A stretch of DNA of 64,000 nucleotides from a virus, in IMG/VR virus record IMGVR_UViG_3300031525_000865. One strand, given 5' to 3'. The notes beneath the pieces were generated by a model. The model did not search any database. It saw only the letters and a list, made by a program, of their open reading frames with translations, and had not been told where the DNA came from. Each line of letters begins with the position of its first letter. The first letter of the stretch is position 1. The position numbers were made by a program, and so were the translations under genes. Shown one piece after another: positions 21,930-59,952 of the stretch.

Positions 21930-23240
21930 AACCCCGTCCTTCAGGGCGGGGAGGAAGCGCCGTCTCCGCGTTGCGCCTCCACGTAGCGTTTGACGAGCGG
22001 TGCTAAGCTTCGATCCGTGAATATCCGCAAGGGGTTTCGCTACCGCGTGTACCCGAGCGCTTCTCAGATTGCGCGCACCGGACAGTGGGAAGGCGCGCTT
22101 CGGTTTCTCTGGAACCTCGCGCTGGAGCAGAAGCGCATGGGGCTCGCCCGTCCGCGAGGCGAGAAGGTCTACCCGTCGGCGTTCGACCAGATCAAGGAGC
22201 TGACGGAGCTGCGCGCGGCCTTGCCATGGCTGGCCGACGTCCCTCGCAACGTCTGCGCCCAGCTTCTGGTCGAACTCGACAAGTCGTGGCAGCGCTGCTT
22301 CAAGAAGCTCGCCCGTGTGCCACGCTGGAAGCGCAAAGGCCGCGACTCGCTCTCCTTCAGCGAGCCGCACCCCAAGGCGTGGCGCCTCGACGGCTCCACG
22401 CTGCGCTTTCCCAAGCTGGGCAACCTGCGAACGGTCGTGCACAGGCCACTCGAAGGCAAGCCGAAGAGCTGCACGCTCCGCCAGGAAGCCGGCCAGTGGT
22501 TTGCGTCGATCGTATGCGATGTCGAGATGGCCGACCCCGTGCCTCGTGCCGGACCCGTCGTCGCGATCGACCGCGGCGTGGTCAACGTCGTCGGCGACTC
22601 GGACGGTCGTCTGGTCCCGTCGCCACGTTTCTACAAGGAGGCCATGTCGCGCCTCGCCCGTGCTCAACGCAGCGTCTCCCGCAAGAAGAAAGGGTCCAAG
22701 AACCGAGAAAAGGCCAAGGCTCGCGTCGCCGTGCTGCATCGCAAGATCGGCCGAAGGCGCGACCACTTCCTGCATGGTCTCTCGAACGACTACGCCAAGA
22801 GCCACGGCGTCGTCGTCCTGGAGAAGCTCACGATCGGCAACATGGTCCAGGCGAGCCGCGGTCTTGCCCGAGGCATCCTCGATGCGGGGTGGGGCCAGAT
22901 GGCCTGGATGCTCGACTACAAGCTCACGTGGAAAGGCGGCAGGGTCGAGTACGAGTCGGCCGCCTTCTCCTCGCAGACGTGCAGCGAGTGCGGACACGTC
23001 GACGCGAAGAGTCGCGTCTCGCAGTCCGTCTTTCGCTGCACCGCTTGTGGTCACACCGAACATGCCGACACCAATGCACCCAAGGTGCTCAAGAAGCGTT
23101 ACGAATCCCGTGCGAGTCGCTCGGGCAAGCCTGTGGACGGGACCGCGCCTGAGGCGGCCGGAAGAAGCAGGAAACGAGTTGGTCTACGTGTTCCACGTCG
23201 TCCTCTCGAAAGCTCCGGCCTTTAGGCCGGGGTTGATTAC
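21930..23240 (+). mobile_element. IS200/IS605-family non-autonomous (tnpB-only, IS1341-like) element; ends approximate
   Basis: matching subterminal hairpins CCCCGTCC-TTCA-GGGCGGGG (21932-21951) and CTCCGGCC-TTTA-GGCCGGGG (23213-23232) flank tnpB; no tnpA in the window. Confidence 0.8.
22017..23225 (+). CDS. tnpB: RNA-guided endonuclease TnpB
   Basis: FRYRVYP HTH, VAIDRG (RuvC-I D), VLEKL (E), CSECG..CTACG Zn ribbon, HADTNA (D); GTG 7 nt after TGcTAAGCT. Confidence 0.93.
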   Translation: MNIRKGFRYRVYPSASQIARTGQWEGALRFLWNLALEQKRMGLARPRGEKVYPSAFDQIKELTELRAALPWLADVPRNVCAQLLVELDKSWQRCFKKLARVPRWKRKGRDSLSFSEPHPKAWRLDGSTLRFPKLGNLRTVVHRPLEGKPKSCTLRQEAGQWFASIVCDVEMADPVPRAGPVVAIDRGVVNVVGDSDGRLVPSPRFYKEAMSRLARAQRSVSRKKKGSKNREKAKARVAVLHRKIGRRRDHFLHGLSNDYAKSHGVVVLEKLTIGNMVQASRGLARGILDAGWGQMAWMLDYKLTWKGGRVEYESAAFSSQTCSECGHVDAKSRVSQSVFRCTACGHTEHADTNAPKVLKKRYESRASRSGKPVDGTAPEAAGRSRKRVGLRVPRRPLESSGL

Positions 23241-45580: not shown

Positions 45581-46247
45581 ATGAGTGTGATCGTCGAGAT
45601 CCGGGCGGCCGAAGGTGGCCTCGATGCAAAAGACCTCGTTCGCGAGCAGTTCACGGTGTACGCGCGCCGCGCTGCTCGTCACGGTCTTTGACCTCGAACT
45701 CATCGAGGACCGTCCGGGGCTGATGGTCTTTCGCGCGCTGGGGGATGCTGCGGCGCACGATTTCCATGACGAGGCGGGAGGGCATCGTTGGCAGCGCGTC
45801 CCTCCGACGGAGAAGCGCGGCCGGGTACAGACCAGCACGGTGACGGTGGCGGTGCTGGAAGAGCCCACACCGCTGCAGGTGCGCCTGGACGATCGGGATC
45901 TGGAATGGCAGACGTGTCGGGCGTCGGGCAGCGGCGGTCAGAAGGTCAACAAAACCGAGAGCGCGGTGCAGCTGCGGCACGTGCCCACGGGGCTGACGGT
46001 CCGGGTTGAGACGGAGCGTTCGCAGCACCAGAACCGTGCGACGGCGCGCACGCTTCTGGGGGCGAGGATCTGGGAGCGCGAGCGTCAGCGGATCCAGAAC
46101 GAGCGGGACGCGAGCCGCCGTGAGCAGGTGGGGGCTGGGCAGCGCGGCGACAAGCGGCGGACGATCGCTGTGCAGCGCGGTACGGTGGTCGACCACGTGA
46201 CGGGTCGAGCCTGGTCACTACGTGACTACCTGCGTGGGGCCTGGTAG
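45581..46247 (+). CDS. short class-I peptide chain release factor (RF1-type PxT, GGQ; lacks domain 1), encoded across a +1 frameshift: join(45581..45688,45690..46247), 221 aa
   Basis: Frame 0 gives MSVIVEIRAAEGG..YARRAARHGL, stopping at CTT-TGA-C (45686-45692). The +1 frame continues DLELIE..GGHRWQRVPPTEKRGRVQTS..GSGGQKVNKTESAV..ERSQHQN. Confidence 0.85.
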
Positions 46248-48513: not shown

Positions 48514-48866
48514 GTATGTTCTTCTCTACTACGTTGCCGATCCGTACACGGGAGGTCGCGTGGTCATCGGGGCGCTGGTTGACGCCGACGGTGTCGTGGC
48601 GCTCGTGCGCGGCAAGACTCCATGCGGTCACTGCCTCCGCAAGTCCGGGGGTGCGGCTCATCGAGATGGCGTTGCAGGACGTGGAACGACGGATGGCTTC
48701 GGGATGGAATCGACTCGCGCTTCCAGGCTCGGTGGGACCGCAGATTGTGGCGAGCGAATCGCGCTGGACGCCAGGCGGTGCACGAAGCGCTACGGCGTGG
48801 GTCGCCTCGCTTCTAGTTCGTGGTCGAGAACCGGACCAAGTAGAGGACGCTGTCGAACGGCAATAG
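48500..48866 (+). pseudogene. DUF3037-like gene split by a +1 frameshift near the G-run at about 48645-48652
   Basis: The N-part AEYVLLYYVADPYTGGRVVIGALV and the C-part LPGSVGPQIV..WVASLL are in different frames. Confidence 0.45.
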
Positions 48867-49157
48867 TCGGACGGCGTCGCTCGTTCGGCGGTCCGGTTTG
48901 ATGCGTCCGGCGAGGACGTCCTGCAGGCACTCGTCCCAGACTGACTTCGGCGCAGGAGAGAGCAGGCTACGGATCTTTGCCTCCTTTTGCGCCTCGCTGT
49001 CGCCCGTGGTGTTCAGCAGCACGGTGCTCATGAGCCCGCGCTCGAAGTGCTCCTGGGCTTGCGCCAGCGTGGTGCCTTCCGAGGCGTAGTCGAGTTCGAG
49101 ACCTTGCGCGAACCACGCGCCGTCATCGTAGACGACGTGCACCCGCAAACTGCCCAT
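48813..49157 (-). CDS. HicB-like antitoxin-fold protein
   Basis: VHVVYDDGAWFAQGLELDYASEGTTLAQAQEHF. Confidence 0.65.
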   Translation of the reverse strand: MGSLRVHVVYDDGAWFAQGLELDYASEGTTLAQAQEHFERGLMSTVLLNTTGDSEAQKEAKIRSLLSPAPKSVWDECLQDVLAGRIKPDRRTSDAVRLLPFDSVLYLVRFSTTN

Positions 49158-49216
49158 GTGAGAGGCGCCGCGCATTTGCTTGACAGCCGGTATAACATGC
49201 GTCACCTTGCCTCGCT

Positions 49217-49726
49217 ATGGCGGACAAACAGACGGTGTCGGACGCGCTTCGTCGCATCGCTTCGCTCAAGGGTCTCATCGGCGAGCACCGCAAGCGCGCA
49301 GCGGCTTCGGTGACGTACGAGGAGAGCGCGAAGCCCTCCTTCGACTTCGAGGAGACGGCAGCCAAGGCCAACGCGGCGCGTGACGAGCTGGTCGCGCTCC
49401 AGACGGCGGTGCAGCTGGCGAACGCCAAGGCGGAGATCGAGTGGCATGGCAAGACGATGGCGGTCATGCACGCCGTGCGACTGCGCGAGGAGTACAAGAG
49501 CGAGATCGCCTGGTACAAGGAGCTTCACTGCCTGGCGCAGGCGGTCGTCACGACCGAGGAGTTCTCGTACGACGACGACGGCAAGCGCGTGCGCGTGGCC
49601 AAGAAGAACAACTGTGCGCTGCCCGATGGCAAGCGCGCGGAGACGGTCGACCGCCTGCAAGGCGAGCACGACAAGATCAACATGCTCATCGAGAAGAGCA
49701 ACGGCCGCACGGAGATCGCTCTCTAG
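49217..49726 (+). CDS. DIP1984/DUF6847-like all-helical protein
   Basis: TVSDALRRIASLKGLI, LQTAVQLANAKAEI, AVRLRE and DRLQ...INMLIEKSNGRTEI match the family helix pattern as I recall it. Confidence 0.65.
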   Translation: MADKQTVSDALRRIASLKGLIGEHRKRAAASVTYEESAKPSFDFEETAAKANAARDELVALQTAVQLANAKAEIEWHGKTMAVMHAVRLREEYKSEIAWYKELHCLAQAVVTTEEFSYDDDGKRVRVAKKNNCALPDGKRAETVDRLQGEHDKINMLIEKSNGRTEIAL

Positions 49727-49743
49727 CGCGCCACAAGACTTCA

Positions 49744-49952
49744 GTGGGGTGGGAGGAAAGCAGACGAGAGGACGCGCAGGGAAAAAATAAGGTGCCCTCG
49801 AACCGACGCCGATTCCGAGATTCAGCCTTCAGCGTTCAGATTTTGCGTCAGCCTTGAGCGGTCAGCGATGAGCTTCCAGCTCTGAGCACTTGTCCTTTCC
49901 TTCGTTACTCTCCGGGCGGGCCCCAAAGGCCAGCCGGGCTCTCCTACCCCGC
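49744..49952 (+). ncRNA. candidate structured RNA with a heptamer-repeat loop; strand inferred from G-U pairs and the upstream gene
   Basis: 12-bp closing stem 49744-49755/49941-49952; nested stems; about 9 T(C/G)AG-N3 units at 49822-49889; GC hairpin at 49915-49935. Confidence 0.7.
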
Positions 49953-49978
49953 TGGGGATCATCGAACGAGGTTTCGCC

Positions 49979-50179
49979 GTGAGCCGCAAGCGTGTGGAGG
50001 AGACGCGAAAGAGTGCGCGACGTCCTCTATGCCCGTCCTGCCGCGTGGGCGGTTACACACAGAGCGAGGCACTGGATGGCCGGCCGCGTTTTCACTGCGG
50101 CCAGTGCGGCAGCACGTGGACGTGTGGTCGTGATGGTGGCGAGTACGCGGGCCGCGCGCAGCCGGGCGTTGGCGGATGA
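49979..50179 (+). CDS. Zn-ribbon protein
   Basis: CPSC...FHCGQC. Confidence 0.55.
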   Translation: MSRKRVEETRKSARRPLCPSCRVGGYTQSEALDGRPRFHCGQCGSTWTCGRDGGEYAGRAQPGVGG

Positions 50180-50496
50180 CGACCTCGGACGAGTGGATGG
50201 GAGCGCACGGTTGGCGCGTGCTGGTGCAGCCCAACGGGCTCCTCGCCATTTTCAGCATGGTGACCGACGAGATGCTTCTCGTGAACGCGACGGACGAGGA
50301 AGTCGCAGCGTGTGTCGTGACCGCCGAGCGCGAGCGCGCGGAGCGTGGTGCGACAGGTCTCGCGCGGCAGATGGTCGCGGAGGCGCGCGAGGACAGCCGG
50401 GCGCCGTGGGCCACGCGATGGGAGCGGACGCTCGCGATGCTGGGCGGCTGGCGAGGGATGGCGTACGTGGACCACCTGACGAAGCGGTGCGCGTGA
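50176..50496 (+). CDS. hypothetical protein
   Basis: ATGA overlap. Confidence 0.55.
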   Translation: MTTSDEWMGAHGWRVLVQPNGLLAIFSMVTDEMLLVNATDEEVAACVVTAERERAERGATGLARQMVAEAREDSRAPWATRWERTLAMLGGWRGMAYVDHLTKRCA

Positions 50497-51038
50497 TGGC
50501 GCAGTGCAACCGTTGCCACAAGGAAAAGTCGGTTCCACGCGCGATGGCGGATCGCCGGGCGTGGTGCATGTGCCCAACGGAGCTTCTCGTGGTGGAGGAG
50601 ATCTGCGACGGGTGCGGCGCGAAGAGCGGAGGTTTTTCGTTCCAGACGGGTGATGAGGCCGCGCCGGGTACGGCGGCGTGGACCGCGCCGCCGGCAGGTT
50701 GGCTGTCTTCCTCGGGTCCGGACGGACGCGAGTCCATTGCCTGCTCGGTGGCGTGCGCCAGGAAGGTGGACACGGCCCGACGGGCGGAGGAAGTGCTCAC
50801 GAACGAGGGGCTGGCCATCGTCAAGACGCCGGGGGTGTGTGGCGGCTACGCGCGTTTGCATCAGACTCGGATCCCCGTGTCGTGCCTGGAGTCCTGGCGT
50901 CGCCAGGGAGCTGGGGTCTATGGCCTTCAGAGGTCCTACCCGCATCTCACCCGAGCGCAGATCGAGGCCGCCTGGGCGTACGCGGACGCCCACAAGGACG
51001 AGATGGACCGGGAGATCGCGGAGAACGAGAACGCCTAG
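50496..51038 (+). CDS. Zn-finger plus DUF433 domain protein
   Basis: C-terminal IVKTPGVCGG..RL..TRIPV....YPHLTRAQIEAA..Y. Confidence 0.75.
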   Translation: MAQCNRCHKEKSVPRAMADRRAWCMCPTELLVVEEICDGCGAKSGGFSFQTGDEAAPGTAAWTAPPAGWLSSSGPDGRESIACSVACARKVDTARRAEEVLTNEGLAIVKTPGVCGGYARLHQTRIPVSCLESWRRQGAGVYGLQRSYPHLTRAQIEAAWAYADAHKDEMDREIAENENA

Positions 51039-51106: not shown

Positions 51107-53740
<2,634 letters not shown>

Positions 53741-56132: not shown

Positions 56133-56366
56133 CCGGCCACAAGAAGCAGGACACGATCGACGCGGCGCTGGCACTGCTCGACGAAGAGAAGAGCAAGCTG
56201 CGGCGCATCTTCCGCCAGCCGACGCGCTCGTCCTCCATTCACTGGCTCCTTCCGATGCTGCAGTCGGGATGACCCGCCGTTGGCACGAGGAGCTGTCGAA
56301 CATCCAGCACGAGGCGCAAGGTCGTCGGCTCGCCAGCAGCGACACTCTCTGGTACAAAATGCGCCC

Positions 56367-57710
56367 ATGGAAAGCGACAGCTTCGACATCATCGAGAGCC
56401 AGGGAGGTGTGCCCATCAAGGCCTGGACGCGAGGCGTTCCGGTGGAGGATGGCGCGAAGGCGCAGCTCCGCTACACCTCGCAGCTTCCCATCGTGTGGCC
56501 GCACATCGCCGTCATGCCCGACGTACACCACGGCTTCGGCTCGACGGTGGGCAGTGTCATCCCGACCGTAGGAGCGATCATTCCCGCCGCGGTCGGGGTC
56601 GATATTGGCTGCGGCATGGTGGCAGCGCGCACGACGTTGACGAGCCATCAACTGGGCGACAGCGCAAAGGCGCTCTTCGATTCGATCTCGCATGCGGTGC
56701 CGCACGGCCGTTCGGACGAAGGTGGCAACAACGACCGTGGCGCGTGGGGCCAGCCGCCGGAGGTGGTGACGGCAGCGTGGGCGGGGCTGGAGGAGCGGTT
56801 CAAGCGGATTGTGGACAAGTACCCGCGCCTGGAGACGCGCCGGCAGGTCAAGCAGCTGGGGACGCTGGGTACGGGCAACCACTTCATCGAGGTGTGCATC
56901 GACACCGAGGACCGCATCTGGGTGATGCTGCACTCGGGCAGTCGTGGCATCGGCAACCGCATCGGGAGCTACTTCATCGCGATCGCGAAGGACGAGATGG
57001 ATCGCCTTGGGATCTCCATGCCCAACCGGGACCTCGCGTACCTGTCGGAGGGGACCGAGCATCTGCCAGACTACATGGAGGCGGTGGGCTGGGCGCAGGA
57101 CTACGCGCGCACGAATCGCGAGCTGATGCTGGAGCGCACGCTGTCGGCGCTGCGCAAGGCGGGGCTGCCGAAGTTCGAGGTGACCGGGCAGGTGGTCAAC
57201 TGCCACCACAACTACGTGCAGAAGGAGGAGCACTTCGGCCGCGAGGTCTACCTGACGCGCAAGGGTGCGGTGAGTGCTCGTGTCGGAGAGATGGGCATCA
57301 TCCCCGGTAGCATGGGAGCCCGGAGCTTCATCGTGCGTGGCAAGGGCAACGCGGAGTCCTTCCACACGTGCAGCCACGGGGCTGGCCGGGTGATGAGCCG
57401 TACGGCGGCGCGGCAGACGATCACGCTGGCGCAGCACCGCGAGGACACGGCGCACGTCGTGTGCTGCAAGGACAAGGACGTCGTTGACGAGAGCCCTCGG
57501 GCCTACAAGTCCATCGAGGCGGTGATGGCGGCGCAGTCGGATCTCGTGGAGATCGTCCACGAGCTTCGGCAGATTGTCTGCGTCAAGGGTCTTGGTGACG
57601 GCGACGGGCACAAGGGCAAGAAGGAGCGGAGGAGGAACGACAGGCGTCAGGAGGCGAGTCTCTACGGGCACGGCGAGCCGGACGACGACGAGAGCGGTCC
57701 CGACGCGTGA
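56367..57710 (+). CDS. rtcB: RNA ligase RtcB
   Basis: MPDVH, VGVDIGCG, LGTLGTGNHFIE, HSGSRG, CHHNY, PGSMG, SHGAGR, DESP.AYK. Confidence 0.96.
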   Translation: MESDSFDIIESQGGVPIKAWTRGVPVEDGAKAQLRYTSQLPIVWPHIAVMPDVHHGFGSTVGSVIPTVGAIIPAAVGVDIGCGMVAARTTLTSHQLGDSAKALFDSISHAVPHGRSDEGGNNDRGAWGQPPEVVTAAWAGLEERFKRIVDKYPRLETRRQVKQLGTLGTGNHFIEVCIDTEDRIWVMLHSGSRGIGNRIGSYFIAIAKDEMDRLGISMPNRDLAYLSEGTEHLPDYMEAVGWAQDYARTNRELMLERTLSALRKAGLPKFEVTGQVVNCHHNYVQKEEHFGREVYLTRKGAVSARVGEMGIIPGSMGARSFIVRGKGNAESFHTCSHGAGRVMSRTAARQTITLAQHREDTAHVVCCKDKDVVDESPRAYKSIEAVMAAQSDLVEIVHELRQIVCVKGLGDGDGHKGKKERRRNDRRQEASLYGHGEPDDDESGPDA

Positions 57711-58749: not shown

Positions 58750-58778
58750 TTGCGTGAGCGGCGGCCAGGTCTTAGCCT
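58750..58778 (+). promoter_or_regulatory. TTGCGT-17-TAGCCT promoter of dnaJ
   Basis: canonical spacing; GGAGG follows. Confidence 0.55.
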
Positions 58779-58788
58779 GGAGGCTCGG

Positions 58789-59952
58789 ATGGGCAAACGA
58801 GACTACTACGACGTCCTGGGGATCACGCAGGACGCGTCCTCGGACGACATCCGTCAGGCCTTCCGTCGCGAGGCGGCCAAGAGTCATCCGGACCGAAACC
58901 AAGGGGACGAGAAGGCCGAGGCTCGGTTCAAGGAGATCAACGAGGCCTTCCAGGTGCTCTCCGACGACGGCAAGCGCCGGATCTACGATCGGTTCGGGCA
59001 TGCGGGGCTCGATCCGGGGGGAGCGGGCGCGAGCGATGGGGACGGCTTCCACGGGGTCCAGGACGTGTTCGCGCACATGCAGGAGCTGTTCGCGGACATG
59101 TTCGGGGCGACGGTACCACCGGAGGAGCAGCGACGCCGGCACCGCCACAACGGCGCACCACCGCGGCAGGCCAAGAGCGGACAGGACATCCGGGTCGAGA
59201 TCCCGATCACGATCCGCGAGGCCGTGTACGGGTGCACGCATACGGTGACGGTGCGGTCGACGGCGGTGTGCTTGGAATGCGGCGGGACGGGCGCCCGACG
59301 CGGCACGAAGCCCGAGGTCTGCTCGGGGTGCGGAGGGGGCGGCCAGGTGTCGGTGCCGCGTGGGTTCATTGCGTTCTCGCAGCCCTGCGGGATGTGTCAC
59401 GGCGTGGGGCAGCTCATCCACCATCCGTGTGGCGCATGCCGTGGCCAGGGGGCGTCGGAGACGACCCGCCAGGTCCCGGTCAACTTCCCTCCGGGGATCG
59501 CCGAAGGTCAGCGTCTGCGCGTACGTGGCTACGGGATGCCCGGGCGCGACGGAGCGCCGTCCGGTGATCTGCAGGTGGAGATCGTCCTCAAGCCCGACGA
59601 GAGATTCGAGCGGCACGGTGCCGATCTCCAGACGCATGTGCACGTGCTGTTCACCCAGGCGATCCTGGGTGCCGAGCTGAGGGTACCGGTGCCCGACGCC
59701 ACGCGCGACGACGTGACGGTGCCGATGTTCTTGCCGCCGGGCACGCAGAACGGGGCGGCCCTCCGCGTGGCGGGCCATGGACTTGGGCGCACCGGGGCGC
59801 GAGGTGTGCTCATCGTCGTCATCCATGTCGATGTGCCCGTGAAGCTGTCGGAGCGGGCGCTGGCTCTGGTCGCGGAGTTGAACGCCGAGCTGGTTTCTCC
59901 GCAGAAGAAGCCGCAGCTCTCGCCGGGAGCCGAGCCGCCGCCGCCCGGGTGA
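58789..59952 (+). CDS. dnaJ: chaperone DnaJ (class A)
   Basis: J-domain with HPD, G/F region, four CxxCxGxG repeats, C-terminal domain. Confidence 0.95.
   Translation: MGKRDYYDVLGITQDASSDDIRQAFRREAAKSHPDRNQGDEKAEARFKEINEAFQVLSDDGKRRIYDRFGHAGLDPGGAGASDGDGFHGVQDVFAHMQELFADMFGATVPPEEQRRRHRHNGAPPRQAKSGQDIRVEIPITIREAVYGCTHTVTVRSTAVCLECGGTGARRGTKPEVCSGCGGGGQVSVPRGFIAFSQPCGMCHGVGQLIHHPCGACRGQGASETTRQVPVNFPPGIAEGQRLRVRGYGMPGRDGAPSGDLQVEIVLKPDERFERHGADLQTHVHVLFTQAILGAELRVPVPDATRDDVTVPMFLPPGTQNGAALRVAGHGLGRTGARGVLIVVIHVDVPVKLSERALALVAELNAELVSPQKKPQLSPGAEPPPPG

Follow-up and report, generated by a model that had tools for sequence, protein, structure and literature searches.

A structured small RNA with a seven-nucleotide register and the adjoining DIP1984-fold protein gene form a new gene pair of huge phages

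The 64,000-nt stretch of virus DNA analysed here (IMG/VR record IMGVR_UViG_3300031525_000865; the whole stretch is referred to as the window) has the same sequence as a 166-kb contig from a peat metagenome. Its plus strand carries a gene for a 169-aa protein with the fold of the DIP1984 family and, behind it, a small RNA whose ends pair in a closing stem (P1) and whose interior presents nine copies of a seven-nucleotide unit, or heptad (Table 1). This is an expressed, structured small RNA, which in all genomes examined occurs once and behind one protein gene; the RNA founds a new family, and with the gene it constitutes a new RNA–protein gene pair. The locus had been singled out in a first-pass annotation made from the sequence alone. 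In the following, L-numbers designate loci of relatives and G001–G004 designate huge-phage records.

Table 1. Features of the locus and of its surroundings; coordinates are those of the window unless a locus is named
Feature	Coordinates	Strand	Basis or remark
Promoter-like site CCGCGC-17-TATAAC, 5' of the protein gene	49168–49196	+	Motif scan
169-aa protein gene	49217–49726	+	Stop codon TAG at 49724–49726; GC content at third codon positions (GC3) 0.91
Small RNA, ~213 nt, bounded by closing stem P1	49742–49954	+	Metatranscriptome contigs, 24 homologous loci, core-model match
P1, 5' arm, CAGUGGGGUGGGAG	49742–49755	+	Pairing with the 3' arm
P2, 5' strand, purine-rich, interrupted, variable	49766–49795	+	Indel in relatives
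GACGCCGAUUCC, window form of the family motif GAYNCYGAUAYC	49805–49816	+	Alignments A6, A7
First heptad set, UCAGCCU UCAGCGU UCAGAUU	49822–49842	+	
Second heptad set, six UNAGCNN	49848–49889	+	A at 49850, 49857, 49864, 49871, 49878, 49885
P2, 3' strand, pyrimidine-rich (GCACUUGU..UUUCCUU CGUU..CUCUC)	49886–49912	+	
P3, GC hairpin between P2 and P1, completes three-way junction	about 49913–49938	+	
P1, 3' arm, CUCCUACCCCGCUG	49941–49954	+	Pairing with the 5' arm
Next gene, 66-aa zinc-ribbon-like open reading frame (ORF)	49979–50179	+	Two Cys pairs; outside the module
Short RF1/PrfH-like release factor	45615–46247		
ClpB	51107–53740		
RtcB	56280–57710		
DnaJ	58750–59952		
RNase P RNA of relatives	L157:3734–4077, L160:3314–3653, L168:3295–3633, L169:3300–3629		Five more loci

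The protein gene had been credited with a TATAAC promoter of its own. The site in question is a variant, with two mismatches, of a motif (TTGCGC-17-TATAAC) for which a motif scan found 11 sites in the window, and to this extent the assignment holds, but a generic sigma-70 scan returned no promoter at the protein gene or at the RNA. A motif scan of the window revealed no site of the TTGCGC-17-TATAAC type ahead of the RNA. A promoter-like site precedes the gene and none precedes the RNA, which makes it probable that the transcript of the gene gives rise to the RNA from its 3' end.

On re-reading of the sequence, the coordinates and the outer stem given by the first-pass annotation proved exact. 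The segment GUGGGGUGGGAG (49744–49755), which begins eighteen bases past the TAG stop codon of the 169-aa gene, pairs completely with CUCCUACCCCGC (49941–49952), including two G–U pairs, and the helix is prolonged to 49742/49954. The nine heptamers likewise lie in the two runs where they had been placed. Within P1, an interrupted stem (P2) had been proposed, and its pairings of GAGAG (49766–49770) with CUCUC (49908–49912), of GACG with CGUU (49903–49906) and of AGGGAAA with UUUCCUU (49896–49902) were reproduced by ViennaRNA, which also recovered the outer stem and the GC hairpin (P3) thought to complete a three-way junction. The innermost stem, AUAAGGUGC/GCACUUGU, fared less well, as it is weak and unconserved: it consists of merely 6 pairs, and L001 and L002 carry an inserted local hairpin at this place. 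In relatives, the sequence of P2 changes while the purine/pyrimidine complementarity of its strands is maintained, and the string AGCAYUUGU at the start of the 3' strand is conserved family-wide. A hairpin is also present at the position of P3 in L001, L145, L146 and L147, with a different sequence. A coding region at the RNA is ruled out by conservation with a period of 7, not 3, and by indels that are not multiples of three, so that the region is non-coding, as had been proposed. No U-tract is found 3' of P1 in the window. The segment ACGAGAGGAC (49764–49773), which matches the core of the 23S sarcin-ricin loop, is one G short in L001 and L002 and is paired in P2; the likeness is probably due to chance.

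Expression of the RNA was assessed in four peat metatranscriptome runs from four studies, using sampled sequence words and assembled contigs. The metatranscriptomes contain 42–84% of the words from 49735–49960, compared with 7–13% of those from 49100–50300. Within the segment 48800–51000, contigs cover 49755–49949 (word depth 156), 49765–49930, 49750–49889 and 49780–49886, while the flanks, 48800–49749 and 49950–51000, are devoid of contigs. DNA carry-over is excluded, because contaminating DNA would also cover the flanks. The RNA is a discrete species, far more abundant than the adjacent mRNAs, and its observed limits fall within P1. Adapter remnants in two contigs from two runs place read 1 on the minus strand, which, given the usual dUTP libraries, points to a plus-sense RNA. 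Similarly, P1 is more stable on the strand of the gene in 19 of the 24 RNAs compared (37 G–U among 403 pairs, p = 0.0009).

The heptads are all in one orientation. Pooling of nine units from 19 sequences gave the consensus U (82%), N, A (98%), G (88%), C (73%), N, N. In the first set, the A at 49824 and that at 49831 never vary, and at 49838 the A is found in 16 out of 19 sequences. The array is composed of three units, a spacer that varies in length and another six to eight units, and both the number and the register of the units are conserved, which indicates a fixed ruler and not a product of slippage. Among three close relatives, none of the 24 AGC columns varies, compared with 6 out of 16 NN columns (Fisher p = 0.002). 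The RNA of the window contains seven phase-locked AG dinucleotides, while 300 shuffled sequences have a mean of 2.8 and a maximum of 5, and the phase-locked AG count lies above that of the shuffles in 25 out of 26 RNAs. The heptamer run occurs once in the 64-kb window, and Tandem Repeats Finder (TRF) reported periods of 7 and 14.

A word-based search with the protein yielded no more than two close relatives, at 78% and 72% identity, and a full HMMER search revealed 260 relatives at the 50% cluster level. DNA was fetched for L145, L146, L184, L185 and 29 IMG/VR loci. In all of the 27 related loci with usable downstream DNA, the RNA is found directly behind the protein gene on the same strand. 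The RNA-bearing loci, which include the window, L001, L002, L145, L146, 19 distinct IMG/VR loci, L184 and L185, span a protein identity of 31–78% and a GC content of 30–67%. Many of the IMG/VR loci are situated on phage contigs of 180–436 kb, one of which is complete with terminal repeats. The RNA usually starts 7–25 nt past the stop codon, although in L158 an insertion of ~160 nt intervenes. Measured from the 5' arm to the matching 3' arm, the homologous RNA is 205–314 nt long in 24 loci, and its design comprises P1, the GAYNCYGAUAYC motif and the heptad run (alignments A6 and A7), with a conserved core of ~100 nt between the stems. In close relatives, blocks of the RNA are 95–100% identical compared with 80–83% for the coding sequence, and variable, indel-bearing stems stand alongside these blocks.

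A sequence-only model of the RNA core (R1) has a single match in the 64-kb window (E = 1e-17). Each of the records G001–G004 contains one protein gene and one R1 match, always adjacent (two loci outside the training of the model), and the gene for the DIP1984-fold protein is the sole universally conserved neighbour of the RNA. Other searches returned no further members: two exact blocks of the RNA were absent from the viral contig collection by pattern scan, an 18-mer of the RNA gave 18 chance matches and no relative in metagenome contigs, and two heptad-register patterns matched only the contig of L147 and unrelated (GGTTAGN)n arrays. No relative was found by protein search of genome contigs (two runs) and plasmids, and tblastn with two family members gave no match in GenBank phages. 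The most distant relative checked (L184:2064–2400, 31% identity) has an RNA of the same design with UNAGG units, which R1 misses; its neighbours, TrmB and a STIV_B116-like gene, suggest an archaeal virus.

Covariation was judged by comparing the duplex energies of own and foreign arms, in place of per-pair counts from a full-length covariance model. The arms of P1 are entirely different between lineages (GUGGGGUGGGAG/CUCCUACCCCGC, UAGAAUACGC/GCGUAUUCUA and UAGAGUAC/GUACUCUA are examples), and the mean energy of the P1 duplex is −26.7 kcal/mol with the own arm vs −14.6 kcal/mol with a foreign arm, the own arm being ranked first or second in 20 of the 24 RNAs. By this test, the pairing of P1 is retained across changed sequences. 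In L001 as compared with the window, P1 shows U:A to U:G and G:U to G:C exchanges. In the low-GC group, a hairpin preceding the array is compensatory (CCAGC/GCUGG, CCAAC/GUUGG, UCAGC/GCUGA), and the same applies to the enclosing P2. A U-rich tract is found 3' of P1 in many low-GC members.

Comparison with known RNA classes gave no assignment. Rfam 15, with its models of C/D-box sRNA, 6S, tmRNA, SRP and RNase P, has no match in the window, and none for the RNA either at gathering thresholds (the window and 20 loci) or at permissive thresholds. The best sub-threshold match, to the C/D-box family sR47 (20.7 vs 40 bits), was obtained for L001 only and rests on GAUGA/CUGA strings that the RNA of the window does not contain; the C/D-box look-alikes sR47 and snoZ6 were rejected as sub-threshold and not conserved between the window and L001. 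ARAGORN detected neither a transfer-messenger RNA nor a tRNA within the RNA. The Rfam models of Y RNA and YrlA gave no match at permissive thresholds or, for 20 loci, at gathering thresholds, and the RNA has no tRNA-like domain. The RNA belongs to an undescribed family.

The 169-aa protein scores just below the cut-off of Pfam DUF6847 (PF20935; 26.7 vs 27 bits) and below that of NCBIfam DIP1984_fam (NF038048; 29.5 vs 70 bits), while its relatives L150 (41.2 bits) and L185 (precomputed match) exceed the Pfam cut-off. The AlphaFold (AF2) model of the protein has a predicted local distance difference test score (pLDDT) of 97 and matches 3KDQ, a DIP1984/DUF6847 protein of Corynebacterium diphtheriae, across the whole protein, with Foldseek template-modelling (TM) scores of 0.76/0.84, a VIA-align Z of 14.5 (the next match has 8.4) and a root-mean-square deviation of 2.6 Å over 150 residues at 14% identity. 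The designation "DIP1984-like" is thus clearly borne out by the fold, but not by the sequence scores, which remain under both curated cut-offs. A sequence search of the Protein Data Bank gave no match for the 169-aa protein. TRAP and HutP had no Pfam match even at E up to 10 and were absent among the fold matches, and the four-helix-bundle protein of generic heptamer arrays (23S IVS / Avd) matched the 169-aa protein neither in fold nor in sequence. No family was matched by PADLOC. One relative (L160:2501–3007) matches PHROG 1491 (E = 1e-7), the label of which, "tail fiber protein", is doubtful, and the structural neighbours in the ESM Atlas include the Siphovirus Gp157 family (TM 0.74) and a "putative septicolysin"; these PHROG and ESM Atlas labels probably reflect annotation transfer and not actual function. 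None of the papers searched mentions the protein family or reports an RNA partner for DIP1984/DUF6847.

Structure prediction suggests that the protein self-associates. With four copies, the prediction reached 0.71 compared with 0.02 for the best of three controls; the predicted runs share at least 73% of their contacts, with a partner pLDDT of at least 85. In calibration, the mark was reached by 20 out of 30 solved homo-pairs and by 1 out of 23 single chains, with two copies there and four copies plus a custom alignment here. Helix 1 bears a stripe of conserved basic residues, and aromatic residues of the protein are likewise conserved; the conserved basic residues R12, R13, K16, K18 and R27 lie outside the predicted interface.

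The heptad unit itself is not restricted to this RNA. A loose TSAGCNN pattern detects dispersed, often inverted arrays on more than 120 IMG/VR contigs, and R1 cross-matches such generic arrays in 80 IMG/VR loci, with model positions 21 and above only. No DIP1984-like gene was found in 120 generic-array loci (1.07 Mb). Heptamer repeats have been treated as unexplained and possibly read by an RNA-binding protein (PMC4679880). The generic arrays, which comprise the cyanobacterial short tandemly repeated repetitive (STRR) sequences, the TAACTGA repeats of Beggiatoaceae (PMC4679880) and the TCAGC arrays, have in common with the phage RNA a 7-nt unit with a TCAGC/TNAGC core, but they are dispersed, multi-copy, variable in number and usually accompanied by an inverted copy. 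In contrast, the phage RNA occurs once per genome, in a single orientation, with a fixed number and register of units, a covarying fold and one gene beside it. The RNA family is distinct from the generic arrays, though the unit is common to both. In some IMG/VR loci of about 60% GC (L056, L057, L069, L041 and L007), intergenic (TCAGCNN)n arrays, often followed by inverted (NNGCTGA)n, number up to 14 per 9 kb. The tandem (GGTTAGA/GGTTAGC)n arrays at L192:6000–6182, L195:4060–4200 and L196:1600–1800 are unrelated to the RNA family; they sit directly 5' of a conserved gene start on three related viral contigs of 42–44% GC.

The genes around the pair have a common theme, which is RNA processing or repair and translation. 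In nine loci, a class-A RNase P RNA (252–308 bits) lies directly 3' of the RNA, an RNA ligase gene (PF09414) comes next, an HNH gene is located upstream, and tRNA clusters are nearby. In L185:1–1333 (also in L186), the gene for an orthologue of Ro60 (TROVE and vWA_Ro60 domains, 530 aa) stops 167 nt short of the DUF6847 gene, and in L185 the RNA is followed by tRNAs. TROVE-like ORFs are present in two of the four phage records (G004 and, weakly, G002) at a distance of 9–25 kb. Ro60 is absent from the other two records, including the complete 436-kb G001, and was not found among the scanned large ORFs of the window. The PrfH-like factor, ClpB, RtcB and DnaJ occur in the window as well as in L001, and the cluster around the module in the window looks like an RNA-repair and proteostasis island. 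The genes downstream of the RNA vary by lineage (zinc-ribbon ORF, RNase P RNA or tRNAs), and an ERF recombinase gene is found upstream of one relative. The genome of Deinococcus radiodurans, which served as a control, matches both TROVE and DUF6847.

Taken together, we lean towards the view that the RNA and the DIP1984-fold protein make up one ribonucleoprotein module. The RNA would be cut from, or transcribed with, the mRNA of the protein and would outlast this mRNA; self-associating copies of the protein may then line up on the single-stranded heptads, with one A–G per 7 nt, in a manner resembling TRAP and HutP; and the resulting particle would help to maintain RNA or to take over translation in the course of infection. 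Such a role is suggested because the usual neighbours are RNase P RNA, tRNAs, RNA ligase or RtcB and a PrfH-like factor, and once Ro60. The first-pass annotation had likewise envisaged a ribonucleoprotein system in which the protein oligomerises on the 7-nt register. Of the four outcomes that it had named as refutations, three were put to the test (homologous genes without the element, lack of covariation and lack of expression), and none of them materialised. The genetic linkage, the 7-nt spacing of the motif and the predicted self-association agree with such a system, but the form of the predicted interface does not: it is that of a two-fold symmetric dimer and not the head-to-tail contact expected of a ring or filament reading a 7-nt register. 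Several other observations also count against the ribonucleoprotein module. The protein is close to neutral (median isoelectric point 6.6), and no known RNA-binding fold is found among its structural matches, of which only 3KDQ, itself of unknown function, stands out. The folding energy of the RNA is unexceptional relative to shuffled sequences (z = −2.1 for 49741–49955, and −0.67 with flanks), and, except for P1 and, in the low-GC group, one hairpin and P2, the helices are supported by few sequences. The adjacency of gene and RNA could result from co-transcription alone, and generic TCAGC arrays have the same unit without such a gene, so that another factor could be the reader.

This last point leads to an alternative that we consider rather unlikely, in which some other RNA-binding protein or ribonuclease, of host or phage, reads UNAGC heptads and the RNA acts as its decoy or sponge, with the DIP1984-fold protein working in the same pathway but not as the reader. 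The heptad part of R1 does match generic arrays, which are widespread and unexplained; the great abundance of the RNA relative to the flanking mRNA is sponge-like, and the neighbouring protein is neither basic nor endowed with a known RNA-binding fold. However, a host-specific target poorly explains the strict one-to-one adjacency to a single gene from 30 to 67% GC, in what are probably very different hosts, the 64-kb window contains no other heptad array, and no candidate host factor is known. The sponge role put forward in the first-pass annotation is so far unsupported. It is less probable still that the RNA serves as a Y-RNA-like or repair cofactor together with Ro60, RtcB and RNA ligase, with P1 as the docking site, the heptad loop as an effector or tether and the protein as an adaptor. 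The close proximity of Ro60 in L185, the TROVE-like ORFs of two of the four phage records, the occurrence of RtcB and the PrfH-like factor in the window and in L001, the RNA ligase gene that comes after the RNase P RNA in nine loci and the architecture itself, a terminal stem with a large internal module, are all in keeping with this idea. Yet Ro-binding sites are conserved in sequence, whereas the sequence of P1 is not; the Y RNA and YrlA models of Rfam do not match, there is no tRNA-like domain, and Ro60 is lacking in the complete 436-kb G001 and among the scanned large ORFs of the window.

The RNA might also be only a cis element, such as a stabiliser in the 3' untranslated region, a processing site or a terminator for the mRNA of the protein, or a leader for the genes that follow, of which a stable fragment persists without a function in trans. 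Its start 7–25 nt past the stop codon in nearly every locus, the want of a recognisable separate promoter and the U-rich tract after P1 in many low-GC members are as expected of such an element, but a terminator or stabiliser would need far less than a ~100-nt core whose 7-nt register does not vary between 30 and 67% GC, the downstream genes differ between lineages, and P1 of the window is not followed by a U-tract; we regard this explanation as improbable. The proposal of the first-pass annotation that the RNA is an antitoxin of a type III-like system, in which a toxic protein would be held in check by the repeat RNA, could not be upheld. The known type III antitoxins consist of tandem repeats of ~34–40 nt located upstream of an endoribonuclease toxin that cuts out the units. 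A repeat RNA beside a small protein gene on a mobile genome, and in great excess over the mRNA, recalls such systems, but here the units are of 7 nt instead of ~36 nt, lie downstream of the gene and are enclosed in a single folded RNA, no match was obtained with PADLOC, the fold is not nuclease-like, and the pair is a conserved, single-copy, core-like feature of huge phages, all of which makes this role very improbable. Finally, it is most improbable that the heptads act in DNA, where they would be iterons or an origin-like array bound by a protein of replication or recombination: the structural neighbourhood of Siphovirus Gp157 (TM 0.74 in the ESM Atlas) and the ERF recombinase upstream of one relative would be compatible with such a site, but a DNA site would need neither a discrete and abundant transcript nor long-range stem covariation, G–U pairs and strand asymmetry.

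Among known systems, the closest parallel to the putative heptad recognition in the module is provided by the TRAP–trp and HutP–hut leaders of Bacillus. HutP reads UAG-N4-UAG-N4-UAG, with a 7-nt period and in two sets, while TRAP reads 11 (G/U)AG triplets. In the phage RNA, as in these leaders, NAG-type triplets recur at short, constant intervals along single-stranded RNA; the phage triplets are conserved, with positions 2, 6 and 7 free as spacers, and like the HutP site the phage RNA has two sets (three plus six to eight units), with A and G invariant in the phage units. The putative partner, however, has the DIP1984 fold and not that of TRAP or HutP, and the phage RNA is a closed, stand-alone molecule downstream of a gene, whereas the TRAP and HutP sites lie in 5' leaders with a choice between terminator and antiterminator. 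The CsrB/RsmZ RNAs are similar in being abundant small RNAs with many copies of a short motif, and the phage RNA, too, would plausibly titrate or assemble many copies of one protein. They differ in that their GGA motifs sit in irregularly spaced hairpin loops and serve CsrA as the partner, whereas the phage RNA has UNAGC in a strict 7-nt register within one large loop, and in that the genes of the phage pair always adjoin. With the bacterial Ro60–Y RNA system (rsr-yrlA-rtcBA), the phage RNA has in common the paired 5' and 3' ends and the location beside RNA-repair genes, one relative being beside Ro60, but it lacks an Rfam match, a tRNA-like domain and a conserved stem sequence, and Ro60 is missing at most loci.

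With this pair, the huge phages, whose RNA biology has barely been charted, gain a conserved non-coding RNA family that is expressed in natural samples, and DUF6847/DIP1984, a family with a solved structure and no assigned role, gains a concrete candidate partner. A strict 7-nt register of invariant A–G is a rare and clean signature of repeated RNA recognition and could reveal a new mode of reading RNA, and the RNase P RNA, tRNAs, RNA ligases, RtcB and Ro60 nearby suggest a function in the repair of RNA or in taking over translation during infection. The widespread bacterial heptamer repeats, so far unexplained, are built of the same unit, and they would become directly open to testing once a binding partner is found here. 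It is conceivable, if doubtful, that the pair represents a new class of ribonucleoprotein in which DIP1984-fold proteins assemble on a ruler of 9–11 heptads, that the same recognition, or mimicry of it, explains the bacterial TCAGC arrays, and that the phage particle hijacks or titrates the machinery that reads these arrays.

Some minor features of the window lie outside the module. The public annotation of the identical peat contig lacks the 66-aa ORF that follows the RNA; the alignment of this ORF with L001 shows in-frame indels and retention of the Cys pairs, only the closest relative has the ORF, and its matches to zinc-ribbon families of Pfam are weak. The tRNA-SeC at 50215–50291, the sole ARAGORN call in the window, lies inside a conserved 106-aa ORF, has no Rfam confirmation and is probably false. 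Further upstream, this phage-like genome encodes a TnpB protein (OrfB_IS605 and Cas12f1-like TNB domains) at 21990–23225.

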